Notes under the pieces: model-generated
Seen by the model: the letters and a program-made list of their open reading frames with translations, nothing else
What the model was told of the DNA's origin: nothing
Database searches by the model: none
Program-made: the position numbers and the translations under genes
Virus record (IMG/VR): IMGVR_UViG_3300035701_007101
Origin: a virus
Lineage: Duplodnaviria > Heunggongvirae > Uroviricota > Caudoviricetes
DNA: 64,000 nt
Reading direction: 5' to 3' (one strand)
Part shown: positions 10,755-40,252 of the stretch, piece by piece
How the letters are laid out: every line of letters starts with the position of its first letter
Numbering within the stretch: the first letter of the stretch is position 1

Positions 10755-12230
10755 ATGCTATCATTAGAAGTTGGTAATGTTAATATTAAACTAATTGGCA
10801 ATATAGACAATTTAACAATTCAAAAATTGTTTGAAGTTATGACATATAAAACCATTGAATTCAATGGTTTTAATTTTATTGAATTACAACACAATTTATT
10901 CAACAAATTAAAACAATCATTTCCGACTGGGCTTTTTTCGAAGGCTGCGGACATATTAGAAGAATTAGATGTAAAATATGATATCGTTGATAAAAGACAA
11001 CATTTCAAAATAAATCAACCTCTTAAATTGCATGATCCAAAAGATCCTCAAAAAAATGCACAACTCAGAGATTACCAAAAAGAAATTGCTAAACTAGCAG
11101 TTGAAGCTCAAAGATTTGTAATTCAAGTTGCTACTGGTGGTGGAAAAACAGTTATTGCTGCTGCTATACTTGCTGAATTAAACGTGCCTTCAATATTTGT
11201 AGTACACACTGGTGATTTATTTGAACAAGCACATGAAGAATTGAGTAAAATGTTAAATATACCAATTGGCAAAATTGGTGGAGGTGAATGTGACATACAA
11301 AAGATTAATGTATGCATGATCCAAACAATTCATTCAGTTTTAAATAAAAAGTATATACCCTTTGATGAAGATGAAAAAGAATTAATGGAACATGATGAAA
11401 TCGTAAAAAAGAGTTTCATTAAAAATGATAAAATTAAAAAATTTATTCAATCAGTCTCGTGCATACTAGTAGATGAAGTTCATCATCTTTCTTCTCGTAC
11501 TTACATTGAAACAATGAAAACATGCACATCTGCATTTTGGCGAGGAGGAATGTCAGCAACACCACACTCAGGTCAGGAAAAAGATATGATTTTGCAAGCT
11601 TATGCTGGTAAAATAATTTGTAGAATAACTGCTTCATATTTAATAAAGAGACATTTTTTAGTAAAACCAAAAATTTATTATTTGTTAGGAACAAAAAGCG
11701 GCAAATACAAATTTAGTAGAAAAAGATATAATGCTATCTATAAAGAATTCATAATCAACAATACATATAGAAATGAATTAATTTCAGATTGTGTAAGTAG
11801 ATTAAAATCACTAAATAAGTCTGTGTTAATAACTGTTACAACTAAAAATCATGGTCAAAAATTACTGAAAATTATTCAGGGTCTTGAAAATACATCAGTT
11901 CAATTCATTTGTAGTCATGTTAATAAAATGGTAAGAAAAGAATATTTGAATCAGATTAGAAATAAAGAATTAGATGTTATAATAGCAACACAACTTGCAG
12001 ATGAAGGTCTTGACTTGCCTGCACTTGATTCATTAATATTAGCTGGTGCAGGCAAGTCACCAACAAGAATGATTCAAAGAATAGGTAGAGTATTACGAAT
12101 ATATCCCGGTAAAGAAGATGCAATAGTTATTGATTTTAAAGATAGTGCAAGATATTTAGCAGGTCATTATAAGAAAAGACGCGAAATGTGCGAAAAAGAA
12201 TCAGAGTTCGAGATTATCGAGAATTTATAA
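10755..12230 (+). CDS. Superfamily-2 DNA/RNA helicase (DEAH/DExH; UvsW / type III res-like)
   Basis: Motif I 'QVATGGGKT', motif II 'VDEVHH', motif III 'SATP', motif VI 'QRIGRVLR'. Confidence 0.7.
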   Translation: MLSLEVGNVNIKLIGNIDNLTIQKLFEVMTYKTIEFNGFNFIELQHNLFNKLKQSFPTGLFSKAADILEELDVKYDIVDKRQHFKINQPLKLHDPKDPQKNAQLRDYQKEIAKLAVEAQRFVIQVATGGGKTVIAAAILAELNVPSIFVVHTGDLFEQAHEELSKMLNIPIGKIGGGECDIQKINVCMIQTIHSVLNKKYIPFDEDEKELMEHDEIVKKSFIKNDKIKKFIQSVSCILVDEVHHLSSRTYIETMKTCTSAFWRGGMSATPHSGQEKDMILQAYAGKIICRITASYLIKRHFLVKPKIYYLLGTKSGKYKFSRKRYNAIYKEFIINNTYRNELISDCVSRLKSLNKSVLITVTTKNHGQKLLKIIQGLENTSVQFICSHVNKMVRKEYLNQIRNKELDVIIATQLADEGLDLPALDSLILAGAGKSPTRMIQRIGRVLRIYPGKEDAIVIDFKDSARYLAGHYKKRREMCEKESEFEIIENL

Positions 12231-13524: not shown

Positions 13525-14227
13525 ACATTATTTTAGAATGTACGAGATGACAGAATATGATGGTACTCGATATCTTCTAAAAGATGAACAAAATGAAACT
13601 AAACGACACATGATTTTAGCAAATATTCCGGCTAATTATTATTCATATTCATTTACTGATGTTACTAATATTTGGAGTGATGATGTTTCAAATGATGAAG
13701 CCATACATGACTATACATTGTATTATGATAACCTTGAAGCTGCTAAAACTAATGGTACTGGATTATTTTTCTCTGGTGCTCATGGTTTGGTTAAGACTAC
13801 AGCAGCTGTTGTTGTATTAAAGAAAGCAATTTTACAAAAATTTACTGTGTATTTTATTTCAATGTCTGATTTAGTTGATTTTGTTACATCAGGATGGAAA
13901 GACTATAACTTAAAATTGAAATATCAATATATTGTCATGAATGTTGATTTTTTAGTAATTGATGATATTGGTCGAGATTACAAAATACAATCAAGTCAAT
14001 CAACTCAATTTTTAGACAAATTATTTGTTAGTAGATGCAATCAAAAGAAATCTACAATATTAACTTCTATGCACGACATAACATCTACATCAACTATCTT
14101 CACTGATTCATTAGTTACATTATTAAAGTCAAATTTAATTGAAATTAAATTGGTAGGCTCTGACATACGAGAGACTAAATCAAAATCTCTTATTGGTCAG
14201 TTAAAAATTGGTAAAAAAGGTGTCTAA
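13499..14227 (+). CDS. AAA+ helicase-loader-like protein (DnaC/IstB-like, degenerate P-loop)
   Basis: 'GLFFSGAHGLVKTTAAVVVL' (P-loop-like) and 'FLVIDDIGRD' (Walker B as in DnaC 'LLVLDDLG'). Sits directly upstream of a DnaB-like helicase with overlap. Confidence 0.4.
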   Translation: MNQKNKFLEHYFRMYEMTEYDGTRYLLKDEQNETKRHMILANIPANYYSYSFTDVTNIWSDDVSNDEAIHDYTLYYDNLEAAKTNGTGLFFSGAHGLVKTTAAVVVLKKAILQKFTVYFISMSDLVDFVTSGWKDYNLKLKYQYIVMNVDFLVIDDIGRDYKIQSSQSTQFLDKLFVSRCNQKKSTILTSMHDITSTSTIFTDSLVTLLKSNLIEIKLVGSDIRETKSKSLIGQLKIGKKGV

Positions 14228-15653
14228 AATGTTTGCGTCTATAAAAGGCGAAAATAAATTACTAAAGAGTCTAATTAGTCATGATACTATTGACCAGCAA
14301 ATTGCTATTAAAAATATTGAAAAGGTAATTAATAGTAATATATCACCTGAACATTTTACAACTGATTTTAGAGCATGGTTATTTTCTTCAATAATCTCAC
14401 ATTACTATTCATATTCTGCTGCTTTAACAATTGATCTTACTCATCAAAAAATAGTCAAAACATATAAAAAAGAACAGTCAATAAATGATGCAAACGCTTT
14501 ACTTGAAAAAGTTATTAATAGACTGTTTGATCAATTAGAACTAGAACCAACAATTGATGAATTAAAAAATTTACATCAATTAAGAAAAGTATTTGATGTA
14601 ACTCAAAGTCTATTGACAGACTTAAAAGCAATTAAAGAAGGCACTAAGGACGTAAATGCAACACCGTTAATTACTAAACTAGATAGTGCAATTGAACAGT
14701 TAAATAGTCAAAGCACTATGGAAAGAATAATTGAAGAAGACGCATTTCAAGACATTAATGGTGATATTGCATCAATACAAGACAGACACGATAATCCTGA
14801 AAAATATAAAGGTATAGATACTGGAATTGGGCCGTTAACATTAGCTACTGGTGGTTGGCAAGGCGGAGATCTTGTAACAGTAATTGGGCGAACAGGACAC
14901 GGCAAATCTATAGTTCTTTTAAATTTTGGATATTCTGCGTGGATTACTGGAGAAGATATTTTATATGCGACTATTGAAATGCCAATAGGTCAACAAAAAA
15001 GAAGATTACATTCTAGAATGACAGGTGTGCCTTATTTTAGAATGAAAAATGCAGATAAGTTGACTAATGAAGAATTGATTTATATTGAAAAAAAGATTAA
15101 GGACATTAAAAGTAAACATGACAATTCATTTGTAATATTGGATGCTCCTTCAGCTTGTAATGCTAATTTTATAAAAAAGAGAATTTATAATTATGAAAAA
15201 AGCACTGGCAAAAAAATTAAGCTTGTTATAGTTGATCCGATTTATTTAATGCAACCTAACGAACATAATGAAATGTCAAAAAAAGATCCTGTTGGAGCTA
15301 TTTCATGGGACCTTAAATTATTAGCTAGAGAATTAGATGTGCCTGTATTAACTGCAAATCAAATTAGTAGAGAAGGCAATAAAAGACATTTACAGGGTAG
15401 AGAGATAGATACCATGGATTCATCTAGTTCTGATAGATTAGGTCAAAATTCAGATATTATGTTAGGCATAATCTCTGATGATTTACAATGGTTAAAAATG
15501 ACTATTGTAAAATATAGAGATGGTAAAGGTCCAACATTATTTTTACGAAGAAAATTTGACGTAATGAAGGTAGAATATGATGTAGAATACAATCAGCATG
15601 ATGAAATAATCTCTCAAATTATGGGAACCAATAAAGAGGAAGAAAATGAGTGA
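14208..15653 (+). CDS. DnaB-family replicative helicase
   Basis: 'GGWQGGDLVTVIGRTGHGKSIVLLNFGYSAW' (Walker A), 'KLVIVDPIYLM' (Walker B), 'ELDVPVLTANQISREG' (DnaB H4 motif). Confidence 0.75.
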   Translation: MVKKVSKMFASIKGENKLLKSLISHDTIDQQIAIKNIEKVINSNISPEHFTTDFRAWLFSSIISHYYSYSAALTIDLTHQKIVKTYKKEQSINDANALLEKVINRLFDQLELEPTIDELKNLHQLRKVFDVTQSLLTDLKAIKEGTKDVNATPLITKLDSAIEQLNSQSTMERIIEEDAFQDINGDIASIQDRHDNPEKYKGIDTGIGPLTLATGGWQGGDLVTVIGRTGHGKSIVLLNFGYSAWITGEDILYATIEMPIGQQKRRLHSRMTGVPYFRMKNADKLTNEELIYIEKKIKDIKSKHDNSFVILDAPSACNANFIKKRIYNYEKSTGKKIKLVIVDPIYLMQPNEHNEMSKKDPVGAISWDLKLLARELDVPVLTANQISREGNKRHLQGREIDTMDSSSSDRLGQNSDIMLGIISDDLQWLKMTIVKYRDGKGPTLFLRRKFDVMKVEYDVEYNQHDEIISQIMGTNKEEENE

Positions 15654-15818: not shown

Positions 15819-16472
15819 ATGTCTACAAGTGTTATTGAAGAGTTGTATTATAAATTATACAATGCTGTGCTTCTTGGAAATATTAATGATTCAAGAATAT
15901 ATTTGGATTTGCTTAGAGATGAGTATGCTACGTGTGAAAAAGATTTTGAAATATTAAATGATGGCAGATTTGATCATTTACAACAATTAAGTATTGCAGT
16001 TGAACAAGGTCTAACTATAAAAAATTTCAATTATAAAGATGACTATGTTGATACTACTAATAAAGATGATGACCAGTTTATCACAGAAAAAGAATTAGTC
16101 GTTAGAATTTGCAAAGGTAATGAATTAAAAAAACTACTCAAGGCGTCTGACAACTTTTATATCTATAATATGGAGCATCCTACAAGATATGGCAAAATAG
16201 ATATTGTTGCTCAAGATAATTTAACAACTTATATTATTGAAACGAAAAAAAGTCATGCACATTATTCGGTCATTAGTCAGATTGATAAATATTTATTAGA
16301 TGTTAAATTGAAATTGAATTTAAAACATTACACTAAAGTTATTGGCATTGTAATAGCAAATGGCTATATTGGTAACGTGACTCAGGAATTAGTAAAACTT
16401 GGAGTGATACCAGTTAAATATATGATAATGAATGATGATTTAAAACTTAGTCTAATGATCAAGGAGATGTAA
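15819..16472 (+). CDS. Putative PD-(D/E)xK-fold nuclease-like protein
   Basis: 'GKIDIVAQD...TYIIETKK' fits the D...(D/E)xK arrangement. Weak. Confidence 0.35.
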   Translation: MSTSVIEELYYKLYNAVLLGNINDSRIYLDLLRDEYATCEKDFEILNDGRFDHLQQLSIAVEQGLTIKNFNYKDDYVDTTNKDDDQFITEKELVVRICKGNELKKLLKASDNFYIYNMEHPTRYGKIDIVAQDNLTTYIIETKKSHAHYSVISQIDKYLLDVKLKLNLKHYTKVIGIVIANGYIGNVTQELVKLGVIPVKYMIMNDDLKLSLMIKEM

Positions 16473-17770
16473 TGGAAATTAAATTAAAAAGACTAGCAAC
16501 ACCACATAAACTAAAATTTGTCGAAGATGCAGAAAGTGTAAAAAAACTTATTGATGAATGTTATGAAAAAGTAAAACCACAAATTATTGTAAATGGTTTT
16601 CGTAAAGGTAATGTACCTCGAGATGTAGCTGAAAAACAACCACATTTTGATAAATACAGAGTATATCAAACAATATTTGACATTTTATATAAAAAAGCAG
16701 TTGAACAACAAGGTCTTAAAATTGTTGATGCTAGTAATTTTGAAGTTATGGGTGCGTTTGAATATGGTGAATCATTGTCAATGCAAGCAACAGTTTATTT
16801 AAAGCCAACTGTGATAAAGTTTAATATTGATGATGTTAAAGTTTCAAGAGCTGATACAGTCATAACTCAGCAAATGGTTGACGATCAAATTAATGTATTG
16901 CAAAATACAAAAGCAATATTTACAAATGTTATTGATGTTGATTACAAGGCTAAAAAAGGTGATGTTCTTATAATTGACTTTGCAGGTAAATGTGAAGGAA
17001 AAGCATTTGCTGGAGGAACAGCTAATAATTTTAGGTATGTCATTGGTGAAACAAGATTTATTGAAGGCTTTGAAGAACAAATACTCAATATTAAACTGAA
17101 TGAGACAAATGTTGTTAAAGTGACATTTCCCGAAACATATCATGAAAAATCATTAAAAGGTAAGGCAGCTGAGTTTACAGTAACAGTACGAAAAATTGAC
17201 TCTAAAACTGTTAGATCAATTGAAGAAATGGCTGCTGCTGAGAATAAGTCTATTGAAGAATATAGAAAGTTTGTTTTTGATAAATTGGTTGAAGATTATA
17301 AGAAAATTGATGATGAACGATATGAGGCAGATGTTTTATCTCAGTGTGTTCTTATTGCTGAGATTCAACCAATACCAGATTCAATGGTAGAATATGAATT
17401 AGCAAATGAATGGAATCAATTGTTATATAGAATGAGTATGTCTGAAGAAGAATTTTTGAAAAAGAATAAGAGTGGTAAAGATGTATTTTATGCGCAAAAA
17501 AGATTGAGAGTCGAAAAAGCTCTTGAAATTAAGATGTTTTTAGATCATATTTGTGAAAAGTATAATATTACTGCGTCAGAAGAAGAAGTGCAGAAATTAT
17601 TTGACGACAGATTTACAAAGCTTAATAAAACTGAAGAAGAGAAAACTGAAATTAAAAATAATCTTAAGAAAAAACAAAATTATTCTGCAGGTGAAATGGC
17701 AGTTAAGCACGAAAAAGCAACGAAATTGTTAGTTAAATCAGTAAAAAATATTGACGATTATGCAAGCTGA
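16472..17770 (+). CDS. tig: Trigger factor-like ribosome-associated chaperone / PPIase
   Basis: N-terminal 'NGFRKGNVPRDVAEKQ' matches the trigger-factor ribosome-binding signature (GFRKGKVP). Central FKBP-type domain 'DFAGKCEGKAFAGGTANNFRYVIGETRFIEGFEEQILNIKLNETNVVKVTFPETYHEKSLKGKAAEFTVTV' matches the TF PPIase core. Length 432 aa as in bacterial Tig. Confidence 0.7.
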   Translation: MEIKLKRLATPHKLKFVEDAESVKKLIDECYEKVKPQIIVNGFRKGNVPRDVAEKQPHFDKYRVYQTIFDILYKKAVEQQGLKIVDASNFEVMGAFEYGESLSMQATVYLKPTVIKFNIDDVKVSRADTVITQQMVDDQINVLQNTKAIFTNVIDVDYKAKKGDVLIIDFAGKCEGKAFAGGTANNFRYVIGETRFIEGFEEQILNIKLNETNVVKVTFPETYHEKSLKGKAAEFTVTVRKIDSKTVRSIEEMAAAENKSIEEYRKFVFDKLVEDYKKIDDERYEADVLSQCVLIAEIQPIPDSMVEYELANEWNQLLYRMSMSEEEFLKKNKSGKDVFYAQKRLRVEKALEIKMFLDHICEKYNITASEEEVQKLFDDRFTKLNKTEEEKTEIKNNLKKKQNYSAGEMAVKHEKATKLLVKSVKNIDDYAS

Positions 17771-18976: not shown

Positions 18977-20950
18977 ATGAAAATTATGAAAGTTACTGAA
19001 AAGTCAAAGAATCAAGAGATTGGTCGATTAGAAGGCGATATACGGTTGCATAGGTATTTGTATTATAATAAAGAACCTCGAATATCTGATCAAGCTTATG
19101 ATGCTTTAGTTGAACGTCTAAGGCAATTAGCACCAAATAGCGAAGTACTCAAAGAAGTTGGTGCACCGGCAGATGAACATTCTGGATGGCAAAAAGCTAC
19201 GCATTCTATGATAATGGCATCGTTAGCAAATGCTATGACAATTGATGATTATAATAAATGGGTTCATACTACAAATGTCATTGGGAAAGTTTTAGTTTTA
19301 GAAGATAAACTTGATGGTTCATCAATTGAGTTGAATTATGAAAACGGTGAATTAACACAAGCAATTACTCGTGGTGATAGCAGAATCGGTGAAGATATTA
19401 CTCTCAACGTTAAAAAAATGAAATTTGTTCAATCCACTTTAAAGGAAAAAATTACCGTCAGCTTACGCGGTGAAATAATGTTGTTTAACGAAGAGTTTGA
19501 AGAAATCAATACATTAGTGGAAAAACCTTTTGCAAATCCAAGAAATGCAGCAAATGGCATAGCAAAACGATTTGATGGGAAATTTTGTGATAAGTTATGC
19601 ATTGTACTGTATGATATGATTTCGCCTAATGTTACATTTTCGTATGAAACTGAAAAATTAGATTACATGGCTAAAGCTCTTGATTTAGTAACTATTAATT
19701 ATAAATTAGTTACTCCTCAAGAAGTCGTTAAAGTTCGAGAGCAATATACAAAAACTGATAGAGCAAATTTACCATATAATATTGATGGCCTTGTTATTAA
19801 AATAAACAGTATTCAACGACAAAAAGACCTTGGCCGTCATCCCAATGGTGATCCTAAAGGTCATGTTGCTTTCAAATTTGATGCAAGAGGCGTTGCTACT
19901 ACTATTTTAGATTGCATTGCTGAAGTTGGTAGGACAGGAGTAATTACACCAAATGCTGTTTTAGATCCTATTAATATTGATGGATCGATTGTAAAAGCTG
20001 CAACATTACACAATTATGATGAAATTGCTCGATTAGGTGTCGGTATTGGTGATACAGTTGTCGTAGTAAAATCGGGGGAGATAATTCCCAAAGTGATCGA
20101 AGTTATTAAACATGTAGGTAATAAGATTTTACCACCTACGCAATGTCCTGCTTGTGGAGGACCAGTTGTTAAAGATGGTGACGGTGCTCATCTTTATTGT
20201 GACAATGATAATTGTGTTGGTAAGGAATTCAGAAAATTACGTCATTTTACAGATGTTTTAAAGAAACGAATGAGTTTGACTGATATTGGTCATAGTACCG
20301 TTGAGCAATTATTTGAAAAAGGTTTTATAAAGGATCCTGCTGATTTTTATACATTAACAATGACAAAAATTGCAAGTTTAGATAGATCGGGCGAAAAGTC
20401 TGCTAAGAAAATAGTTGATGGTTTTGAACGTTGTAAAGAAATGGACGTTGTTACTTTTTTAATGGGACTTGCAATACCTACATTAGGTGAAACTATGGCT
20501 GAAACTATTACTGATGAATATGATTTATTTGCATTAATGGAAGAAGTTACAGAAACAGATTTGTCAAAAATATCTGGTATTGGTCTTTCTCGTGCTCATG
20601 ACATTCTTGAAGGATTATCTCAACGTAAAGAGTTGATTGAAAAATTGATGCAAGTTGGTGTTAAAATTAAGAAATCTGGTGATGTGAAACTTGAGTCAAC
20701 TAAATTACAAGATAAGTCATTTCAAGTAACAGGACCAATTACGAAAATAAATCCAAAAACAAATAAATCATATAAACGCGAAGAATGGTATGATTTTGTA
20801 AAAGCTAATGGCGGAGAGATTAAACGAGTGAACAAGGAATTAATGTACCTTATAGCTAATAGGTCAAGTGGAAATAAGCTATCCAAGGCCTCTAGTATGG
20901 GGATTAAAGTAATATCTGAGGATGACTTTTGGAAAATGATTGACGATTAA
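18977..20950 (+). CDS. ligA: NAD+-dependent DNA ligase
   Basis: Adenylation motif 'EDKLDGSSIEL' (KxDG), Zn-finger 'CPACGGPV...C..C', HhH region, C-terminal BRCT-like domain. 657 aa. Confidence 0.85.
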   Translation: MKIMKVTEKSKNQEIGRLEGDIRLHRYLYYNKEPRISDQAYDALVERLRQLAPNSEVLKEVGAPADEHSGWQKATHSMIMASLANAMTIDDYNKWVHTTNVIGKVLVLEDKLDGSSIELNYENGELTQAITRGDSRIGEDITLNVKKMKFVQSTLKEKITVSLRGEIMLFNEEFEEINTLVEKPFANPRNAANGIAKRFDGKFCDKLCIVLYDMISPNVTFSYETEKLDYMAKALDLVTINYKLVTPQEVVKVREQYTKTDRANLPYNIDGLVIKINSIQRQKDLGRHPNGDPKGHVAFKFDARGVATTILDCIAEVGRTGVITPNAVLDPINIDGSIVKAATLHNYDEIARLGVGIGDTVVVVKSGEIIPKVIEVIKHVGNKILPPTQCPACGGPVVKDGDGAHLYCDNDNCVGKEFRKLRHFTDVLKKRMSLTDIGHSTVEQLFEKGFIKDPADFYTLTMTKIASLDRSGEKSAKKIVDGFERCKEMDVVTFLMGLAIPTLGETMAETITDEYDLFALMEEVTETDLSKISGIGLSRAHDILEGLSQRKELIEKLMQVGVKIKKSGDVKLESTKLQDKSFQVTGPITKINPKTNKSYKREEWYDFVKANGGEIKRVNKELMYLIANRSSGNKLSKASSMGIKVISEDDFWKMIDD

Positions 20951-20964
20951 AATGAGGAGTTTTT

Positions 20965-21276
20965 ATGATTAAAGAAACTATTACTATTCAAGACGTGTGC
21001 GATCTTTTAAATGAGCTATTGAAAAAAGATCCTTTTTGTATTAATAGTCTTATATTTCAAAGAGTTTTTTGTAATAAAGCTATTGCAAATCATCCTACAG
21101 TACAAGTTGATCAATGCGGAAATCAACCTCGTGTGGGTTTAATAGGAATAATCAATGGTTTGTTTGGCATTAGAGAAGATGGTATGGGTGCTTTATGTGC
21201 GGAAGTTAATAATGATGGCGAACTAATAGTTTTTAAGCCAACGCCTCCTCCTATTTCAAATGGACAAATAAGTTGA
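20965..21276 (+). CDS. Small hypothetical protein
   Basis: RBS GAGGAG upstream. First of a run of small ORFs. Confidence 0.35.
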   Translation: MIKETITIQDVCDLLNELLKKDPFCINSLIFQRVFCNKAIANHPTVQVDQCGNQPRVGLIGIINGLFGIREDGMGALCAEVNNDGELIVFKPTPPPISNGQIS

Positions 21277-21288
21277 AAGGAACGCAGC

Positions 21289-21501
21289 ATGAACAAGTAT
21301 AAACAAGCGTTAGTTAAAATATCACATTTTGATGTTCCGCCAGCTGATAATTCATGTTGTTATGAAATGCAAAGAGCTGTATACGACATCAAGGACATAG
21401 CAGAAGCTGCGATCGGTAAACAGCGTAAATCACAACAAACTCAAAAGTTTTGTAGTTGGCAGTGGAAATGTATTGTAGACAAAATATTCGGGCGTTGTTG
21501 A
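21289..21501 (+). CDS. Small hypothetical protein
   Basis: RBS AAGGAACG upstream. Confidence 0.3.
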   Translation: MNKYKQALVKISHFDVPPADNSCCYEMQRAVYDIKDIAEAAIGKQRKSQQTQKFCSWQWKCIVDKIFGRC

Positions 21502-21552
21502 ACTGTTGGTTACAATTTCATTCTTAATTGATACTGAGGAGTTTGCGTTTAA

Positions 21553-21801
21553 ATGAAACATTATACAATTGGTGCTAAGATGGCTTATGGAGATATTAGT
21601 CCTGTTTACGCTGATAATCAGCATGGTGAATGGGTTAAAGCAAAGGATATGGATAAAGCTATAAATAAACTTAAGCTTAAGTTAATAACAGTCAAGAAGG
21701 CAGTATTTACACAATCAAAATTATTAGATAATTGTGCATCTAACTTTAAATCAAAAACAATTTCTGATATAGCGTCTTCTTTAAGAAGCATTAAGTTCTA
21801 A
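21553..21801 (+). CDS. Small hypothetical protein
   Basis: RBS GAGGAG upstream. Confidence 0.3.
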   Translation: MKHYTIGAKMAYGDISPVYADNQHGEWVKAKDMDKAINKLKLKLITVKKAVFTQSKLLDNCASNFKSKTISDIASSLRSIKF

Positions 21802-21836
21802 TAGTCAAGCAGTTTCATTGTGATCAAAAACTGTAA

Positions 21837-22121
21837 ATGATAATGAAATTTAAAAAAATAGAATTAGCTTCAACAAAAGAAACTGACAAGTACGATGAGT
21901 TTGCTGCTGAATTTTTGAAAAAAATCTTTGGAATAAAAAATTTTTTAATTACTGATGAATCAAGTATCTATGATTTTGATTTTGAACTTGTAGGAAAAGT
22001 TCATCATAATACTGAGAAAGTTTTAAAAAAAATTAAAAAAAATTATGGTGTAGATGTTTCAAAAATAAAAGGTTTAAAGCTTCATAAAATTTTTCAAATG
22101 ATTTTTAAACAAAGGCATTAA
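21837..22121 (+). CDS. Small hypothetical protein
   Basis: ORF in a same-strand array. Confidence 0.3.
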   Translation: MIMKFKKIELASTKETDKYDEFAAEFLKKIFGIKNFLITDESSIYDFDFELVGKVHHNTEKVLKKIKKNYGVDVSKIKGLKLHKIFQMIFKQRH

Positions 22122-22122
22122 A

Positions 22123-22380
22123 ATGAGTATAATCTATGATTATCCATTATACAATAATGGGTTTTTACCGATTAAGTTACAATACATAGCTGCTGCTATT
22201 ACTCAAATAGTATGTGATGCAGATGAGTTTGTTTTTAATATAGTTTTAACAGAAGGTCATACTATACGAATATCACGATCAATGGAAACTCCTATTCCAA
22301 ACAATAAAGCTGAATTTGCAGAACAAAGAACAAGATTAATTACAGCATGGAAAGAGCATGAGAATCTTGCAAATAAATGA
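22123..22380 (+). CDS. Small hypothetical protein
   Basis: Start overlaps the previous stop (TAAAATG). Confidence 0.3.
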   Translation: MSIIYDYPLYNNGFLPIKLQYIAAAITQIVCDADEFVFNIVLTEGHTIRISRSMETPIPNNKAEFAEQRTRLITAWKEHENLANK

Positions 22381-22741
22381 TGACACTTTAGTTGATGTCA
22401 AAAAAGTAAAAAAGTATGCTGAGCAGAATATTGTTTCAATTGATACAATAAAAGCTGCAGTTGAATGTCCCATGGAAAGTATCCCTATAGGTGATAATCC
22501 TGAACATGTTGTGTATATTCATGATGGATTTCGTGTAGTTTATTCGATTGAAGAACAGCCTATAGGATTAATAGCTCATTTGTCTATTTCAGTAGAAGCT
22601 GTAGGTAAATATTCAAATGAGCAGGCTGTTAATGTAATTCTTAAAGAATTCGGAATGAATGATGTATCTGAAAGTATAAACGTGTGGTTGGATGAAAGTA
22701 ATCAATCAGTGAACATTTTACAAGAATTTATAAAGGATTAG
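22358..22741 (+). CDS. Small hypothetical protein
   Basis: Overlaps the previous ORF by 23 nt. Confidence 0.3.
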   Translation: MRILQINDDTLVDVKKVKKYAEQNIVSIDTIKAAVECPMESIPIGDNPEHVVYIHDGFRVVYSIEEQPIGLIAHLSISVEAVGKYSNEQAVNVILKEFGMNDVSESINVWLDESNQSVNILQEFIKD

Positions 22742-22860
22742 TATGTTTAGTTTTTTTGAAGATATGATGGACGGTATTTATTTTGCTATTGATGTGTTTA
22801 TAGAAACTGTCAATGACATTGTAGACAGCCTTTTCCAGTGGTGATTAATAGGAGAAAATT

Positions 22861-23430
22861 ATGAATTATCAAGAAAGACCTTGCGAGTCTCAACCAGGCG
22901 ACATAATAAATAGCATAAAGAGATATGAGTGTGCCGCTATGATATGTAAAGGCAAACGAGTGTTAGACTTTTCATGCGGTTATGGCTATGGTACAAATGT
23001 TTTTCATAAAGCCGGTATTGATGTAGTAGGAGTAGAAAGAGATGCTCCAGTTATAGAAGAGGCAAGAAAGAAATTTCCAAGATGTAAATTTATGGTTGCT
23101 GAAGCGTTTGCTATTGATTTAACGCAGTTTGACATAATTGTTTCTATGGAAGTTATTGAACATTTAGAATTTGAAGACAGAGATGCAACGTTGAAATTAT
23201 TTAGTAGTAAAGTAAAAGAAATTATTATGTCAACACCAAATGGTGACATGTTTCCTTATAGACCAAAAGAGAAAAAAGATCGAATTGGTTTTCATGTTTG
23301 TCATTATGCATATCTTGAACTGGACGATATTTTCAGAAAATTCTACAGCAATGTTGCAATTCTTGGACAAGCCTTTGACCCAAGAATTGGAAAATATACA
23401 GGTCATTTAGTATATGCTGCAAATACATAG
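22861..23430 (+). CDS. Class I SAM-dependent methyltransferase
   Basis: Motif I 'VLDFSCGYGYG', motif 'DIIVSMEVIEHL'. RBS AGGAGAAAATTATG. Stop codon TAG. Confidence 0.65.
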   Translation: MNYQERPCESQPGDIINSIKRYECAAMICKGKRVLDFSCGYGYGTNVFHKAGIDVVGVERDAPVIEEARKKFPRCKFMVAEAFAIDLTQFDIIVSMEVIEHLEFEDRDATLKLFSSKVKEIIMSTPNGDMFPYRPKEKKDRIGFHVCHYAYLELDDIFRKFYSNVAILGQAFDPRIGKYTGHLVYAANT

Positions 23431-23440
23431 GAGATTGCCT

Positions 23441-23584
23441 ATGAATGAACGTTCAATTAAAGTTTTGAAAAGTCAAGGATTCTTTTTAATTAAAGAATTG
23501 GAGAATGGAATGTATAGAGCTCAGTATGATAAAACTGTTTATTACAATTTGTATGTTGTTGGTAATTTAGTGAGACAAGCCTAA
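23441..23584 (+). CDS. Small ORF (47 aa)
   Basis: RBS GGAG 8 nt upstream of ATG. Under 60 aa so absent from the track. Confidence 0.25.
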   Translation: MNERSIKVLKSQGFFLIKELENGMYRAQYDKTVYYNLYVVGNLVRQA

Positions 23585-23586
23585 TT

Positions 23587-24753
23587 ATGAAAGCAATTTA
23601 TGCATTTTCGGGTGATCCAATAACATTTGGTCACATTGATATTATAGAAAGAGCTGCTAAGGTTTTTACAAAAGTGTTAGTTTGTATTGGCAGTAATCCA
23701 GATAAAAAGTATATGTTTACACTTGAACAAAGATTGCAAATGGCCCAAGATGCATTGTCGTCAATTAAAAATGTTGACGTCAAATCTTTTTCAGGATTGC
23801 TTGTTGACTTTGCTTTTGAGCAAAACATTTCAGTTATAATAAAAGGTGTTAGAAATACTACAGATTTTGAATATGAAAATACTCTTCATGCTGTAGGCGA
23901 AAGTCAAAAATTAGGTATTGAAACATTTATATTGTTTGCAAAACCACAATTGGCTCATGTTAGCTCTAGTACAGTTAAGTCAATTCAAAAAGAACATGGC
24001 TTTATTCATGAATATGTTACATTGAATGTTAAAGAAGCTTTAGAGAAGCAGATGTCAAAACAGCTTATTATTGGTGTGACTGGTGAAATTGCTGCTGGAA
24101 AATCGTATGTAACTGATGCATTAGTTAGTTTGCTGGATAAGTCAAAAATTGAAGCTCATAATATTGATTTAGATATTATTGCACATGAAATATTAGGTAG
24201 TTTAAAATTGCCTCAATATGTTGAAGTTAGACACAAAATATCTGCTAGATTTGGTGAAACCATTAAGGATCTTTATGATTCTATTAATAGAAAAAAATTA
24301 GGAGCAATAGTGTTTAAGGATTCAAATGCTCTTAAAGATTTAAATGACATAATGAGAGATTCAATACTTGTAAGAATTAAAAGAGAATTAAATAACAAAG
24401 AAGGCATTATCTTTTTGAATGCTGCTTTACTTGTAGAAGCAGGTATGACAGATTTATGTAATAATAATGTGATTTTAGTTAAGTGTGACAAAGTTGTTCA
24501 GAGATCACGTCTTTACAAACGAGGCCTTTCAACTGTTCAATTAAATAAACGATTAAAATCTCAATATTCTTATGATGAAAAGAAAGCAGTTCTTGCTGAG
24601 AGAATAAGAGAACATAACAAATATACAGGTAATATATTTATTGTAGATACTTCAAAAAATGACTCTGACATTATAAATACTGCTAAATTATTATCAAATT
24701 TGCAAAGCGGTGATTCTAAAGGATTGTGGAAAAACAAATTTTTGACTTTATAA
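23587..24753 (+). CDS. Bifunctional phosphopantetheine adenylyltransferase / dephospho-CoA kinase (CoaD-CoaE fusion)
   Basis: N-terminal 'KAIYAFSGDPITFGHIDIIERA' is the PPAT (CoaD) signature (GTFDPIT.GH..I.ERA). C-terminal half has the P-loop 'IIGVTGEIAAGKSYV' and 'NIDLDIIAHE' typical of DPCK (CoaE). Confidence 0.7.
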   Translation: MKAIYAFSGDPITFGHIDIIERAAKVFTKVLVCIGSNPDKKYMFTLEQRLQMAQDALSSIKNVDVKSFSGLLVDFAFEQNISVIIKGVRNTTDFEYENTLHAVGESQKLGIETFILFAKPQLAHVSSSTVKSIQKEHGFIHEYVTLNVKEALEKQMSKQLIIGVTGEIAAGKSYVTDALVSLLDKSKIEAHNIDLDIIAHEILGSLKLPQYVEVRHKISARFGETIKDLYDSINRKKLGAIVFKDSNALKDLNDIMRDSILVRIKRELNNKEGIIFLNAALLVEAGMTDLCNNNVILVKCDKVVQRSRLYKRGLSTVQLNKRLKSQYSYDEKKAVLAERIREHNKYTGNIFIVDTSKNDSDIINTAKLLSNLQSGDSKGLWKNKFLTL

Positions 24754-24824
24754 CCCTCTATAACTCAGTGGTAGAGTGGCGTTCTCTAAAAATGCTGTCA
24801 TCAGTTCAAATCTGATTAGAGGGA
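24754..24824 (+). tRNA. Suppressor tRNA, anticodon CUA (reads UAG amber)
   Basis: Manual cloverleaf fold. Acceptor CCCTCTA/TAGAGGG (7 bp), U8, D-stem ACTC/GAGT with loop AGTGGTA, anticodon stem GCGTT/AATGC, loop C-U-CUA-A-A (anticodon at 24786-24788), variable 4 nt, T-arm ATCAG-TTCAAAT-CTGAT, discriminator A. No encoded CCA. Confidence 0.8.
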
Positions 24825-24837
24825 TTGATAAATTATA

Positions 24838-24861
24838 AGAGGGATTAAAATCCCTCTTTTT
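24838..24861. terminator. Bidirectional terminator hairpin between the tRNA and the convergent minus-strand genes
   Basis: AGAGGGAT-taaa-ATCCCTCT perfect 8-bp stem followed by a T run. Confidence 0.55.
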
Positions 24862-25243
24862 ATGCAAAATTTAAGTGCTTAAAAATCTCGCCAGTATCAA
24901 TACATGCAATAGCTGTAACTTGATTATTCAAATCAGGTTCTTTAAATGACACATATATTTTTTTACGAGCAGCAAGTTTTGCTGCCCATAAATTTAAAAC
25001 TGATTCATTTCTTATACCAAGAAATATAAGATATGAATTATTCCATTTTTTATATGCTTCTAAATCACCTTTTAATGAATACTCGACAATAGCATGAGCA
25101 CCTTGCACGCACCGATACGTTTGATCTAGATCTTTACGCACCAATACATACATTCTCGGTTCTCGAATATTCATTAATCCAACTCCTAATAAGTTCTTGA
25201 TCAGGTTCGTTACCTTCTGCACATTTTGACTCAATTTGCTCAT
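24860..25243 (-). CDS. Putative peptidyl-tRNA hydrolase, PTH2 family (start uncertain; may be the internal Met near 25153)
   Basis: 'RMYVLVRKDLDQTYRCVQGAHAIVEY' resembles the Pth2 core 'KMVIVVRSDIKMGKGKIAAQVAHAA'. Length about 115 aa for the domain. Overlaps the upstream ORF if the first Met is used. Confidence 0.45.
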   Translation of the reverse strand: MSKLSQNVQKVTNLIKNLLGVGLMNIREPRMYVLVRKDLDQTYRCVQGAHAIVEYSLKGDLEAYKKWNNSYLIFLGIRNESVLNLWAAKLAARKKIYVSFKEPDLNNQVTAIACIDTGEIFKHLNFA

Positions 25244-25436
25244 ATTTAGTTCCTCGCATTAAACAATATGCAATATGTTTATGTCTGTATTGCCATCGTT
25301 CAAGTTTTAATTTGAATTGTAATTCACCAGCATAAAGACAACTTCTTTGAGTTTCTTTGAGATTCTTTTTATTAATTTTAATTTGAGAGGCTAATTGCTT
25401 AAGTTCGTTTTTGAAAGAAAGAATATTTGAATTCAT
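25134..25436 (-). CDS. Hypothetical protein
   Basis: 100-aa ORF overlapping the PTH2-like ORF's 5' region. Confidence 0.3.
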   Translation of the reverse strand: MNSNILSFKNELKQLASQIKINKKNLKETQRSCLYAGELQFKLKLERWQYRHKHIAYCLMRGTKYEQIESKCAEGNEPDQELIRSWINEYSRTENVCIGA

Positions 25437-25588
25437 AACTACACTCCTATTTATTTGTTTGTTGATTAATTAAACGTAATTTGACATGATCAACGAGCGT
25501 AGTTAAAATTAGGGAGGTTTGAATATCTACAGCATTTTTTAATATCTCCTATTATAATAGCTAATATATAACATTTTAATCAACGATG

Positions 25589-30176: not shown

Positions 30177-31049
30177 ATGAAAATTGAATTTTATGGTGTT
30201 CGTGGAAGCTATCCAGTACCAGGTAATGATACTATCAAATATGGTGGCAACACAACGTGTGTTTCAATTTCAAAAGAAGTTAATGGTAAAATAATTAGAC
30301 TTATTTTTGATAGTGGTACTGGCATCATTCGTCTTGGAAAAGACATTATTAAAAATTATTTTGAAGGCAAAGAAACTTTATGTGTTAATTTGTTTTTCAC
30401 GCATTTACATCCTGATCATTGTCAAGGATTTCCATTTTTTGCTGTCAATTTTTTTAAAAATAGTTGTTTAAAGCTTTATGGAATGCAAACTTTGCATAAA
30501 CATATTGGCGATATTTTATCCGAACAAATGTATCCGCCAAATTTTCCTATAGAATATCGAGATTTAAAAAGTGATAGAGAAAGCATTGTTTTAGTTGATG
30601 GTCAAACAATAACAATAAGTGATTTTACTGTTACTTGTATGCAAGCGTTTGCACCGTCACATCCTCAGCAAGGTGCAATGTATTATAAAGTACGTGATAA
30701 TTATGCTAATACAGAAGTTGTTTGTGTTTGGGACAATGAGTCAAAAATTGGTGGTGATCAAGCAGTTATTAGGTTTGCAAAAGATTGCAATGTTATGATT
30801 CATGACACACATTATACTTCTGAAGAATATGTAAGTAATAAAATAATTGTTCAAGGTTTTGGTCATTCAACATACGACATGGCTATGAATAATGCTATTC
30901 AAGCGCATATAAAGCAAAAGTTGATTTGTTTACATTTTAATCCGTTACATGATGATTATAAATTAGATTTAATTCAGAAACAAATAAATGATAATTGTAG
31001 ACCTTTTGAGACAGTTTTGGCCAAAGAAGGATTGATTTTAATAATATAA
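30177..31049 (+). CDS. Metallo-beta-lactamase-fold hydrolase (RNase Z/BN-like candidate)
   Basis: 'FFTHLHPDHCQGFPFF' (HxHxDH), N-terminal 'IRLIFDSGTGI', C-terminal 'GFGHS'. The tRNA 3'-processing role is inferred because the phage tRNAs lack encoded CCA. Confidence 0.55.
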   Translation: MKIEFYGVRGSYPVPGNDTIKYGGNTTCVSISKEVNGKIIRLIFDSGTGIIRLGKDIIKNYFEGKETLCVNLFFTHLHPDHCQGFPFFAVNFFKNSCLKLYGMQTLHKHIGDILSEQMYPPNFPIEYRDLKSDRESIVLVDGQTITISDFTVTCMQAFAPSHPQQGAMYYKVRDNYANTEVVCVWDNESKIGGDQAVIRFAKDCNVMIHDTHYTSEEYVSNKIIVQGFGHSTYDMAMNNAIQAHIKQKLICLHFNPLHDDYKLDLIQKQINDNCRPFETVLAKEGLILII

Positions 31050-31058
31050 GAGGAATGT

Positions 31059-31265
31059 ATGTTTTTAATATTATTGGAAATTACTGTAGCGTGTATAGTG
31101 TTAATATTTTTTGTTACGCAATTAATTATACCTCTTTTTAGAGGAACTGTTTTCTTTCCTATGTTTAGAGAAGAGAGTGATTTAGAAACTAAATTACGAA
31201 AAACAAAGCAAAAGAAATTAGAGAAAAACTTGCAAGATGAAATTAAAAAAAATGAAAGCATATAA
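31059..31265 (+). CDS. Small single-pass membrane protein
   Basis: Hydrophobic N-terminus 'FLILLEITVACIVLIFFVTQLIIPLF', charged C-terminus. Stop overlaps the start of the SPFH gene. Confidence 0.35.
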   Translation: MFLILLEITVACIVLIFFVTQLIIPLFRGTVFFPMFREESDLETKLRKTKQKKLEKNLQDEIKKNESI

Positions 31266-32464
31266 TGTCAAAAAAACTATTAACAAATTTAAAGGAGAAG
31301 AGTATGTCACCGAAAACGATGGGTTTAACTGCTTTAGTTTCTATTGCATGTTTATTTTTTCTAATTTCATGTTTTAAATTGTTTGAAAATAATAATGCAA
31401 ATCAAATTATGTGTGTTCAAAGTCCTATACTTGGTAAATTAACATGGTACATTACTGCCGGCACTAAATGGCAAGGATTTGGAAAAATTACAAAATATGA
31501 TAAACGTTCTATTTATAATTTTTCATTACCAGTTAGATTTAATGATGCAGGACACGCCACTATGACTGGATCAGTTCAATTTGATATGTCATTATCTAAA
31601 GAACATCTTGATAAAGTACAATCTAAGTTTGGTACTGAAGAAGCTATAAAAACTCAATTGTTACAAACTGTAGTTAATAAGTGTTTGTATATGACTGGCC
31701 CAATGATGAGTAGTAAAGAATCGTATGCTGAAAAGAGAAGCTATCTAATTAATTATGTAGAAGATCAAATATCGAATGGCATTTTTAGGACTGCTATAAA
31801 AGATACTACAATTAAAGACCCTATTACAGGAGTAGATAAGATGGCTTCTTTAGTTGAAATTGTCACTGTAAACAAAATTCCTCAGCGTCAGGAAGAAGCT
31901 GTATTAAAAGAATTTGGAATTAGAGCATTTAACTTTTCTATTGAGAAATTAGATTATGACGAAACTGTTGAGAAACAAATACAGCAACAACAACAAATGA
32001 CAATGGCAGTACAGACGTCAATAGCTGATGCAAAGAGAGCAGAGCAAGCAGCTATTACTGCAGAAGCTAATGGAAAAGCAAATGCTGCTACTGCAAAATG
32101 GGAACAAGAAACTAATAAAGCTCGTGCTGTTACTATAGCTGAAAAAGATAGAGATAGTTGTAAATTAGTTATGGAAGCTGCAGCATTTAGGAAGCAAGCA
32201 AGTATATTGGAAGGCGAAGGAGAAGCTACTAAACGTCGATTGATATTACAGGCAGACGGTGCTTTATCCATTAAGCTCGACAAGTGGATTGAATCTCAAA
32301 AAGTATGGGCTGTAGCATTTGCAGCATATAAAGGTCAGATTGTTCCCACTACTGTCATGGGTGGAAATTTTAATGGTCAAAACGGTGCAACTACTTTTAT
32401 GGATATAATGGCTGCAAAAGCTGCTAAAGATTTATCTTTAGACATGAGTGTGCCAAATAAATAA
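31265..32464 (+). CDS. SPFH/band-7 (flotillin/HflC-like) membrane protein
   Basis: N-terminal TM segment, then Ala/Glu/Gln/Lys-rich coiled region 'AKRAEQAAITAEANGKANAATAKWEQETNKARAVTIAEKDRD...EGEGEATKRRLILQA' typical of the SPFH C-terminal region. Confidence 0.6.
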   Translation: MSKKLLTNLKEKSMSPKTMGLTALVSIACLFFLISCFKLFENNNANQIMCVQSPILGKLTWYITAGTKWQGFGKITKYDKRSIYNFSLPVRFNDAGHATMTGSVQFDMSLSKEHLDKVQSKFGTEEAIKTQLLQTVVNKCLYMTGPMMSSKESYAEKRSYLINYVEDQISNGIFRTAIKDTTIKDPITGVDKMASLVEIVTVNKIPQRQEEAVLKEFGIRAFNFSIEKLDYDETVEKQIQQQQQMTMAVQTSIADAKRAEQAAITAEANGKANAATAKWEQETNKARAVTIAEKDRDSCKLVMEAAAFRKQASILEGEGEATKRRLILQADGALSIKLDKWIESQKVWAVAFAAYKGQIVPTTVMGGNFNGQNGATTFMDIMAAKAAKDLSLDMSVPNK

Positions 32465-36170: not shown

Positions 36171-37148
36171 ATGAAAGCAAATTTAGCAAAACAAGATAAA
36201 AAGCGCTTTGTAATTATGTTAATTTGTCTCATTTTATTTTCATTGTGCTTTGCGCAAAAAGATTCAACAAGTGATAGTTCACACGTGCTATTACCAAAGT
36301 CAATCGGTCCAACAACTCTATTTCAAAAATCATCAAGATTTAGAATGCAAGAATATAATTATTTCCTTTTTGGTTTAAGTAAAAAAAGTCCTATAATGGA
36401 ATACAAAAATCAAGTTAAAATTTTATTTAGCATGAAATTTAATTTTTTTACTTTTACTTATGATTCATTATTAGTACTTGTTAAATTCAAAAAGATAACT
36501 AAAAATTTTAATTTATATAGAAGTTTAAACGTTGATATCGGCTATAGACAAAAAAGCTTCTGGAATATTTATGATGATTCTACTTCTCGTCCAATGTATG
36601 ACAATAATTACTCACCCTCTTTCTATCTTTCATGGATAACTTACATCAAAAAAATATCATTACCAATTTCAATATTAGCAGGCTATGTTCACGAATCAAA
36701 CGGTGGAGCTACTTTTTTAAACCCATATTGTCCGGCAATATCAAGAAGTTGGGATAGAATTTATTTAGGCGCAAGCGCAGGAAATTTACAAACAAATCTT
36801 GTAACATTTCAATTAGATATGTGGGTACCTTTTGGTCTTGAAGAAAATACTGATATATATAAACATTATGGAATTGGTGAAATAACTTTGTACTATCAGC
36901 CATTTTTCAAATATCAACATTCATTATCAAATTTTGGTCTATCATTTACGTGGAAAATAGCTAGTGAAAATTTCAACAATGCTGAACTTAGCTTATTTTT
37001 CAGTCCCTTTCAATTTGCTAAAAACAAAATTCTACGATTATTCACGCCCACATTTTATTCTCAACTATATTTAGGAAGCGGTGAGAATTTAATTGATTAT
37101 CAAACTAGACATATTTCTTTTAGAATCGGTTTAGCTACGTTATTTTAA
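36171..37148 (+). CDS. pldA: Outer-membrane phospholipase A (OMPLA, PldA family)
   Basis: Signal peptide 'KRFVIMLICLILFSLCFA'. Catalytic block 'GYVHESNGGATFLNPYCPAISRSWDRIY' vs E. coli 'GYNHDSNGRSDPTSRSWNRLY'. C-terminal 'YSQLYLGSGENLIDYQTRHISFRIGLATLF' vs E. coli '[32 protein letters not shown]'. Terminal Phe of an OM beta-barrel. Confidence 0.8.
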   Translation: MKANLAKQDKKRFVIMLICLILFSLCFAQKDSTSDSSHVLLPKSIGPTTLFQKSSRFRMQEYNYFLFGLSKKSPIMEYKNQVKILFSMKFNFFTFTYDSLLVLVKFKKITKNFNLYRSLNVDIGYRQKSFWNIYDDSTSRPMYDNNYSPSFYLSWITYIKKISLPISILAGYVHESNGGATFLNPYCPAISRSWDRIYLGASAGNLQTNLVTFQLDMWVPFGLEENTDIYKHYGIGEITLYYQPFFKYQHSLSNFGLSFTWKIASENFNNAELSLFFSPFQFAKNKILRLFTPTFYSQLYLGSGENLIDYQTRHISFRIGLATLF

Positions 37149-39296: not shown

Positions 39297-39369
39297 AGAA
39301 AATTTGCTCAATTGGTAGAGCGAAAGATTTAGGATCTTTACGTTGTTGGTTCAAATCCGACATTTTCAT
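39297..39369 (+). tRNA. tRNA with anticodon UAG (Leu codon CUA/CUG by standard rules) but class-I (short variable arm) structure; A1-A72 mismatch
   Basis: Manual fold. Acceptor AGAAAAT/ATTTTCA (6 bp plus 1-72 mismatch), D-arm GCTC-AATTGGTA-GAGC, anticodon stem AAAGA/TCTTT with loop UU-UAG-GA, variable 5 nt, T-arm GTTGG-TTCAAAT-CCGAC. Confidence 0.5.
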
Positions 39370-39604
39370 CCAAACGTTTTATTCAATTTCGCCCTTCTTT
39401 TAATAAAAATTCTGTTGATACATGAGGTTAAACTCATGGTTTTAAAGGGTGCTGGTGAAAAGTCATGATTCCTCCTCGCCCTTTATTTTAAAGGTATAAA
39501 AATTATGAAAATGACAACGAACTTCACTTTTAATTGTAGCAGTTGCTTTAATAGTAGCAACTCAGTGAGGTTCATTTTCTAATTATTCCATTATAGAACA
39601 ACTA

Positions 39605-39643
39605 GAAAAAAGGGCCTCACCTAAAAAATGAGGCCCTTTTTTT
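39605..39643. terminator. Strong bidirectional terminator hairpin
   Basis: GGGCCTCA-cctaaaaaa-TGAGGCCC flanked by an A run 5' and a T run 3'. Confidence 0.55.
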
Positions 39644-40169
39644 ATTGAGAAAAACTATGAAAATGTATATTTTAAGGTATTTGTTTGATATGAATATTAA
39701 ACAATCTAAAAACTTTATTTTAAAGAAATCCCATACCTCAATTTGGAATTTTTTACTTGTAATTTCTAATTTAATGTTTTTATTAAAAACAACATTATCA
39801 CTAAATTCTTCCAATGACTTAGGGATAACAACAATAAATTCATTTAAATTTAAATTACAAGAAAACTATGTACTAAACGCATTTTTAATTTTACATATTT
39901 AAGATTCATAAAGTGAAGATTGTAATTTTTTAAAACTTTGAAATTGTATAAATGAATATGAGTTATGAATTAAAATTAAGTTTTGGTATGATGTGCAGGA
40001 AACAAAACTATTTGAGTTCTTTACAAGGATATGAGATTTTGTCGTGTTCAGAAATATTAAAACGTTATACTATTGTAAAACACGAAAATGATTATGATTT
40101 GGTAGACAATTTGGATTTGTTAGTTGAGTTTTTATATAAGAATATATTTTGAAAATTAGTGTAGTCGCC

Positions 40170-40241: not shown

Positions 40242-40252
40242 TTTGAAATCAT

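Follow-up and report, generated by a model that had tools for sequence, protein, structure and literature searches.

The 64,000-nucleotide stretch of viral DNA analysed here (hereafter the window; IMG/VR virus record IMGVR_UViG_3300035701_007101, Caudoviricetes) carries a gene whose product joins a phosphopantetheine adenylyltransferase (PPAT, CoaD) and a dephospho-CoA kinase (DPCK, CoaE), the enzymes of the last two steps of coenzyme A (CoA) synthesis, on one polypeptide. We consider it likely that this gene, here called coaDE, specifies a bifunctional CoaD-CoaE enzyme that was captured from cells and would act as an auxiliary metabolic gene resupplying CoA. The open reading frame (ORF) lies at 23587..24753 on the plus strand, encodes 388 amino acids from an ATG to a TAA codon and reads through without internal stop or frameshift. 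An earlier note on this DNA, made from the sequence alone, had seen a PPAT signature and a DPCK P-loop within one ORF, and both motifs are indeed found in this uninterrupted frame, with YAFSGDPITFGH as residues 5-16 and GVTGEIAAGKS as residues 163-173. Profile searches agree with the note's assignment of both halves, since the curated cut-offs of TIGR01510 and TIGR00152 are each exceeded.

The N-terminal half, residues 3-155 (23593..24051, plus strand), is a CoaD domain by profile, PDB and Foldseek comparison. It scores 151.5 bits against the coaD equivalog model TIGR01510 (cut-off 103.3), covering model positions 2-154 of 155, is matched by Pfam CTP_transf_like (PF01467) above its gathering score at 3.3e-18, and retrieves 34 PPAT sequences from the PDB at E values of 1e-30 to 4e-20, of which all recognised ones are bacterial. 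The residues S8, T13-F-G-H16 (the (T/H)xGH motif), K40, R89 and S126-S128 are all present. In an alignment to the Escherichia coli PPAT structure 1b6t, which sets residue n of the fusion against residue n+2 of the E. coli enzyme, S8, H16, K40, R89 and S126-128 take the places of T10, H18, K42, R91 and S128-S130, the residues known to bind ATP and stabilise the transition state in E. coli PPAT, and these positions, as well as T13-x-G-H16, are invariant among the 24 aligned members of the family described below. In a structure predicted with AlphaFold2, the CoaD domain has a predicted local distance difference test score (pLDDT) of about 90, and Foldseek with this N-terminal domain model returned PPAT structures for each of the top 50 matches. 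The best of them was E. coli PPAT (6b7a_A), with a root mean square deviation of 1.6 Å over 156 columns and a TM-score, normalised to the target, of 0.92.

The C-terminal half is a dephospho-CoA kinase domain at residues 161-341 (24067..24609, plus strand) according to TIGR00152, Pfam and alignment to PDB structures. TIGR00152 matches these residues with 92.4 bits (cut-off 65.55) and Pfam CoaE (PF01121) matches at 1.2e-23 with a score of 84.2 (cut-off 27), while nine dephospho-CoA kinases in the PDB are found at E values from about 1e-15 (best 3e-15) to 1e-4. Both the Walker A motif G166-EIAAG-K172-S173 and the D194-L-D196 motif are intact and line up with their counterparts in the DPCK structures 2grj, 2if2, 4i1u, 6n39 and 2f6r, and none of the kinase residues T165, G166, K172 and D196 varies in the family alignment of 24 sequences. 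The AlphaFold2 model, which was built on this alignment (overall pLDDT 86.3, predicted TM-score 0.83), has the last CoaD helix (146-157) directly continuous with the first kinase strand (159-166); the two domains are thus modelled with essentially no flexible linker between them. Beyond the core, residues encoded at 24610..24750 (plus strand) are modelled as the C-terminal strand (350-354) and helix (360-374) of the kinase fold followed by a tail of about 12 residues. Only residues 377-388 fall below a pLDDT of 50 and are modelled as disordered, and this tail is specific to the lineage, being conserved in the family alignment only in a relative with 89% identity (P0003).

A search of 5.8 billion proteins, in which matches were kept at E<=1e-5, placed the window protein within a large family of cellular proteins of the same build. 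All of the best 120 among the 849 homologues carry PF01467 together with PF01121, and these 120 share 52-62% identity with the window protein over more than 90% of the length, except for three near-identical copies at 89-100%. At a threshold of E<=1e-30, 310 representatives of clusters at 50% identity were found, of which the best 150 for the most part match the query from about residue 2 to residue 360 in a single stretch; the family thus comprises more than 849 close homologues and at least about 150 such clusters. The alignment of 24 family sequences (A1) has a mean column identity of 61%, is gapless across the junction and displays the family motif YAFSGDPIT(Y/F)GH. The source names of members include Nanoarchaeota, Woesearchaeota, Pacearchaeota, Micrarchaeota, DPANN, Woesebacteria and Pacebacteria, and full-length fusions are also encoded in species-representative genomes of Paceibacterota, Aminicenantes, a metagenome-assembled genome of Bacteroidota and the isolate Tenacibaculum sp. 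M341. Members reside in cellular surroundings: on a contig of 1.36 Mb that also encodes HisRS and HisG, on a Woesearchaeota contig of 411 kb with genes for CarS-like and CDP-alcohol transferase proteins, on a bacterial contig with PNPase, S15, RibF and the type III pantothenate kinase CoaX, and on one further contig where acetyl-CoA synthetase and enolase are encoded. Records at JGI and NCBI label members either "pantetheine-phosphate adenylyltransferase" or, as JGI does for some, [quoted passage not shown], and our literature search found no description of a prokaryotic CoaD-CoaE fusion family, which is known at the level of databases only. The fusion is therefore a widespread prokaryotic invention made of bacterial-type parts; given so large a prokaryotic family at this level of identity, the phage gene would therefore have been acquired from cells already fused. 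Separately, some longer members of 517-619 amino acids (P0121, P0123, P0131, P0167; locus L015, 2986-4746) have about 140-230 extra C-terminal residues without a Pfam match.

The earlier note had likened the protein to eukaryotic CoA synthase (COASY) rather than to the separate bacterial genes, and this part of it is not borne out in that form, because the N-terminal half is a bacterial CoaD equivalog and the likeness to COASY lies in the order of domains only. COASY, too, is a single chain with the PPAT activity ahead of the DPCK activity, and the kinase halves are homologous (2f6r, E 2.7e-6). In contrast, the PPAT half of the fusion is of the bacterial type, and the protein starts at the CoaD domain (residue 1-3) without an N-terminal targeting or regulatory extension as in COASY. 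For 2f6r, the sole COASY chain in the PDB, the match is confined to residues 159-329 of the fusion, which is its kinase half; as this chain may itself hold the kinase domain alone, the comparison lends the likeness no support rather than testing it. A eukaryote-like origin is ruled out by the match of the N-terminal half to the bacterial CoaD equivalog, and the CoaD-CoaE fusion arose independently of COASY. The closest likeness is with the prokaryotic fusions, which share domain order, linkerless junction and motif and within whose tree the window protein nests; what sets the window copy apart is its location on a phage-like element and its lineage-specific tail. Stand-alone bacterial CoaD proteins (E. 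coli 1b6t and 6b7a, Thermotoga maritima 1vlh), which are canonically hexamers, have the same fold and the same HxGH, Lys, Arg and SSS motifs, whereas the window protein has an AFSGDP loop and a kinase fused to the CoaD C-terminus. Bacterial CoaE proteins (T. maritima 2grj, Aquifex aeolicus 2if2, Haemophilus influenzae 1jjv) likewise align over the core, including Walker A, DxD and lid region, but the kinase half of the window protein lacks a free N-terminus and is more diverged than its CoaD half.

Another joining of the last two CoA steps is known from archaea, where PPAT is fused to a GTP-dependent DPCK of arCOG04076 (TK1697-type; Shimosaka et al. 2019, PMC6650551). These proteins are similar to the fusion studied here in being one more independent union of both steps, but their PPAT is archaeal and their kinase is akin to thiamine pyrophosphokinases, so that neither is orthologous to the domains of the window protein. 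TK1697 orthologues are missing in Nanoarchaeota and some other DPANN (PMC6650551), lineages in which we do find the CoaD-CoaE family.

As to the carrier, the earlier note had taken the fusion to be encoded by a phage, and we agree that the carrier is most probably a huge phage. The genes of the window include an FtsK-like ATPase, a DEAD/ResIII helicase, a DnaC/IstB-like loader, DnaB, trigger factor, a Cas4-like nuclease, the NAD-dependent ligase LigA, PolX-PHP, RecA, a single-stranded DNA-binding protein (SSB; phrog_1192), an RNA ligase and a split PolIII-alpha with an intein, alongside six tRNAs and dozens of ORFs without matches. In GenBank, the matches of a 964-aa ORF (2606-5500) are confined to huge phages (Bacillus phage G, an uncultured phage of 485 kb and a tail fibre of Tunturiibacter phage), and homologues of this protein and of the SSB with 58-67% identity reside on IMG/VR viral contigs, two of which share the sample with the 262-kb contig that holds the window. 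Around the fusion lies a replication module that recurs in IMG/VR viral contigs and includes homologues known from huge phages only; no virion hallmark gene was read within the sequence covered. Trigger factor falls into a private clade of large viral-type contigs (42-100% identity, including a 416-kb contig), beyond which homologues reach at most 34%; this clade holds no informative taxon names, and inferring the host from it failed. The protein itself (16472-17770, plus strand) is full-length with N-terminal, FKBP and C-terminal domains. With the assignment made indirectly, from gene content, the IMG/VR classing of the relatives and homologues found only in phages, we regard it as highly probable that the carrier is a phage, and the window looks like the replication region of a huge one.

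Comparison with related loci places the gene in the history of this phage group. Two relatives, L110 and L111, have the same gene order as the window (FtsK - 958-aa protein - helicase - IstB - DnaB - NucS-like - trigger factor - Cas4 - LigA) and trigger factors with 58% and 50% identity to that of the window, respectively, the latter from the 416-kb contig, and neither has coaDE in the region downstream of LigA. A third relative, L099, encodes a fusion protein of 89% identity and has methyltransferase, coaDE and tRNA(CUA) arranged exactly as in the window. Because L110 and L111 are without the gene while L099 has both gene and tRNA, coaDE is an accessory acquisition of one sub-lineage. Between the window and L099, the ratio of nonsynonymous to synonymous substitution rates (dN/dS) comes to 0.13 for the whole gene, with 0.04 in the CoaD and 0.21 in the CoaE half, values that point to purifying selection on both halves. 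The GC content of the gene (29.4%) is close to that of the window (30.3%), and the acquisition is old enough for the gene to have taken on the base composition of its surroundings. A sub-lineage of this huge-phage group would accordingly be pictured as having captured a ready-made fusion into a variable region downstream of its conserved replication module.

Some observations weigh against this reading of coaDE as a CoA-forming enzyme that a huge phage took from cells. Neither the window nor the readable flanks hold a capsid, portal or terminase gene, and a PHROGs search of the relatives' flanks for virion hallmark genes recovered only FtsK-like and unrecognised families. In the tree, the phage pair has a bacterial subgroup and a copy encoded on L101, a phage-like contig of 8 kb, as its neighbours, but this placement is approximate, the tree being a simple one obtained by neighbour joining, rooted at the midpoint and lacking bootstrap values. 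Finally, the loop before the HxGH motif reads AFSGDP throughout the family where PG(S/T)FDP is canonical, with Gly in the place of the Phe of (T/S)FDP, and by its sequence this loop might conceivably alter substrate handling.

The missing virion genes would also fit a window that is a fragment of a small-genome cell, either a DPANN archaeon or a bacterium of the candidate phyla, in which case the fusion would be a housekeeping CoA synthase. Such an origin would be in line with the fact that most family members are on cellular contigs named after just these groups, with the AT-richness of the window (around 30% GC) and with its cell-like genes for trigger factor, RecA, LigA and PolIII-alpha. 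Yet the 64 kb contain no ribosomal, aminoacyl-tRNA synthetase or central-metabolism genes, most of the small ORFs are without matches, and the replication genes are bacterial-type rather than archaeal. The isolated clade of the trigger factor, the exclusively huge-phage GenBank matches of the 964-aa protein and the viral classing of the relatives in IMG/VR speak against a cell as well, and an essential housekeeping gene would not be expected to be missing at the syntenic site in relatives as coaDE is. We therefore find a cellular carrier improbable and continue to treat the gene as one of a huge phage.

Virus-encoded CoaD and CoaE have precedents in separate form. The 50,697 GenBank phage records searched held no match covering at least 80% of the fusion protein, while the largest phage record matched, LR756501.1 (735 kb; L103, 2947-4010), shows the unfused state of the same two steps as a separate coaD (149 aa) and coaE (205 aa) with a 4-nucleotide overlap (ATGA). 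Several phages encode coaD alone, such as Microcystis phage MaAM05 and Myxococcus phage Mx1, and PHROGs contains an unannotated CoaD family (phrog_29208) and nothing that clearly matches the CoaE half. Snow viromes have been reported to contain coaD as well as coaE as abundant auxiliary metabolic genes of viruses (PMC11097641), and a literature search on CoA genes in jumbo phages found nothing specific. All these viral genes encode the same steps as coaDE, but as separate genes or as coaD alone. Single-ORF fusions with 40-52% identity to the window protein are present on four IMG/VR contigs of 298-467 kb, and on two of these (L089 and L091) tRNA arrays are encoded no more than 10 kb away. None of the four shows synteny with the window beyond the fusion itself, and they therefore represent separate acquisitions; counted with the lineage of the window, this indicates at least three independent captures by huge-phage lineages. 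With the fusion common in cellular microbes and phage coaD and coaE already on record, the window gene is a further phage-borne example.

The two halves suggest a straightforward course of catalysis, in which the CoaD half would adenylylate 4'-phosphopantetheine with ATP to give dephospho-CoA and the CoaE half would then phosphorylate the 3'-OH of dephospho-CoA to give CoA. Judged by its domains and motifs, the enzyme most likely converts 4'-phosphopantetheine to CoA, and with the domains so tightly joined, the intermediate may pass more readily from one to the other. In E. coli, CoaD is a regulated step that is inhibited by CoA, and 4'-phosphopantetheine is a breakdown product of CoA and of holo-acyl carrier protein. 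In an infected cell, the phage protein would use 4'-phosphopantetheine to supply or resupply CoA without depending on the CoaD and CoaE of the host. The fusion is thus most plausibly an auxiliary metabolic gene, and the metabolic reprogramming of host CoA pools that the earlier note had proposed may reasonably be inferred.

A related idea, drawn by analogy, is that the fusion serves counter-defence or damage repair by rebuilding CoA when the host or a defence system has broken down CoA or acyl carrier protein, side by side with an NadD-like enzyme. The starting substrate, being such a breakdown product, would suit this role. The window does encode an NadD-like adenylyltransferase of nicotinamide or nicotinate mononucleotide (37497-38429), which scores 98.4 bits with TIGR00482 and thus below the cut-off of 112.45, and in L091, an independent huge viral contig, a NAPRTase-N protein is encoded 2.5-4.5 kb from the fusion. 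Against this stand a literature search that found no CoA-depleting anti-phage system, the loose linkage to the NAD gene, which lies 13 kb away in the window, and the lack of any detected defence-related context, given that the neighbouring gene for a protein of the metallo-β-lactamase (MBL) fold (30177-31049) stays below every cut-off. We consider a counter-defence role unlikely. It is similarly doubtful that huge phages carry cofactor-restoration modules in which the fusion, together with NAD-salvage enzymes, would be the CoA counterpart of phage NAD+ reconstitution.

The genes named here have features of their own. The NadD-like protein (37497-38429, plus strand) has 310 amino acids, with the NadD-like domain at residues 97-265 behind an unassigned N-terminal extension of about 95 residues, and no NAMPT-like partner was found among the scanned ORFs of the window. 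In L091, a 312-kb IMG/VR contig, the NAPRTase N-terminal-domain protein has 668 amino acids (5535-7538) and is encoded upstream of the fusion, with an SPFH/Band-7 protein and a radical SAM enzyme nearby; both kinds are also encoded in the window, as an SPFH protein (31265-32464) and as a radical SAM fusion. The MBL-fold hydrolase (30177-31049, plus strand) gives weak matches of RNase Z-like and cyclic-nucleotide phosphodiesterase-like kind, all of them below the cut-offs, and its homologue in L099 has a faint match to the anti-Pycsar protein Apyc1.

Returning to the reading of coaDE as an auxiliary metabolic gene, its most conspicuous neighbour is a tRNA with anticodon CUA, which reads UAG. 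The note had placed the gene immediately upstream of a suppressor tRNA, and the tRNA(CUA) at 24754..24824 (plus strand) was called by both ARAGORN and Rfam (60.1 bits for the tRNA model), with its first base directly following the TAA stop codon of coaDE. In L099, the tRNA is found at 11169-11241, 1 nucleotide past the stop of the fusion gene. Between the tRNA and a convergent gene (24860-25243), a GC-containing hairpin at 24837..24858 (AAGAGGGAT-TAAA-ATCCCTCTT; no strand assigned) is the sole terminator-like site in 20900-25500, as a call on the minus strand and in a number that lies within chance (mean of 1.6 in shuffled sequences); it is a probable end of the transcription unit. Since the tRNA abuts the stop codon, coaDE and tRNA(CUA) are probably on one transcript, as the hairpin beyond them also suggests. 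RNase P processing of the tRNA would strip the coaDE mRNA of any 3' untranslated region. A scan for sigma-70-like promoters near the fusion gene found no more sites than expected by chance.

No evidence of a functional link between coaDE and the tRNA was seen beyond their adjacency. It is nevertheless conceivable that the protein serves RNA or other non-metabolic chemistry tied to the tRNA, for example by providing or removing dephospho-CoA that is used as a non-canonical initiating nucleotide for 5'-capped RNA. Proximity would be its main attraction, since the gene abuts a tRNA, no more than 10 kb separates the fusions of L089 and L091 from tRNA arrays, that of L089 also being close to a PolyA_pol/CCA-adding-type enzyme, and the methyltransferase upstream of coaDE weakly matches phrog_4752, a phage family annotated as tRNA methyltransferase. 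But huge phages commonly have tRNA islands among their accessory regions, which makes proximity weak evidence, both halves of the protein score as straightforward equivalogs of metabolic enzymes, and cellular family members occur in unrelated contexts without tRNAs, so we hold a role of this kind to be very unlikely.

In spite of the CUA tRNA, no recoding of TAG is visible in the window: under genetic code 11, ORFs of at least 100 amino acids cover 84% of it, TAG ends 6 of the 40 long ORFs, and reading TAG as sense adds little, as it does in related loci. TAG recoding that hides or alters the fusion ORF is ruled out by this coverage and TAG usage. Another candidate that we rejected is a peptidyl-tRNA-hydrolase-like function for the 127-aa ORF at 24860-25243, which is without Pfam or PDB support and matches only phrog_3668, annotated as "hydrolase".

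A pair of genes overlapping by 4 nucleotides as in LR756501 could be fused by a one-base error, but it is next to inconceivable that coaDE is such an assembly or frameshift artefact of two genes, or a cellular gene placed in phage DNA by a chimeric contig, because the identical 388-aa protein (P0001) is encoded in one frame on at least four independently assembled contigs (2 from JGI and 2 from Logan), variants with 94% and 89% identity keep the same length, hundreds of homologues with the same single-ORF architecture align across the junction without a gap, the genes flanking the fusion are conserved in L099 and the gene matches the window in GC content. The possibility of a frameshift that hides two genes, which the earlier note had raised, is thereby ruled out.

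Several other genes of the window deserve mention. PolIII-alpha (58074-63885, minus strand) is split into an N-terminal piece (63001-63885) and the remainder with the intein (58074-61160), which are separated by the RNA ligase (62141-62923) and a 209-aa ORF. In a protein of 1383 amino acids (6473-10624, plus strand), at least nine immunoglobulin-like domains occur along with a weak BNR/Asp-box match, and a protein of 1090 amino acids (45499-48771, minus strand) combines radical SAM and group-1 glycosyltransferase domains. A homologue of outer-membrane phospholipase A1 (36171-37148, plus strand; PF02253, 1.8e-23) hints at a Gram-negative host. Within the tRNA cluster at 39297-41659, an ORF resembling C2H2 zinc-finger/DUF559 endonucleases (40489-41631, plus strand) overlaps with its 3' end the tRNA-Cys at 41586-41659, and L111 has a homologous arrangement with an endonuclease-like ORF at 13963-15180 and tRNA-Cys at 15182.

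Current understanding is not overturned by these results, because the enzymology is predictable from the domains. They do provide a clear case of a phage with both final steps of CoA synthesis on one polypeptide that would have been taken ready-made from a cellular family. This CoaD-CoaE family is large and diverse, extends to DPANN archaea of which some are without the archaeal-type dephospho-CoA kinase, seems to be undescribed in the literature searched and is maybe the more important by-product of our analysis. For the phages, the presence of fusions in at least three huge-phage lineages suggests that the supply of CoA or the recycling of 4'-phosphopantetheine may be a recurrent need of very large phages.

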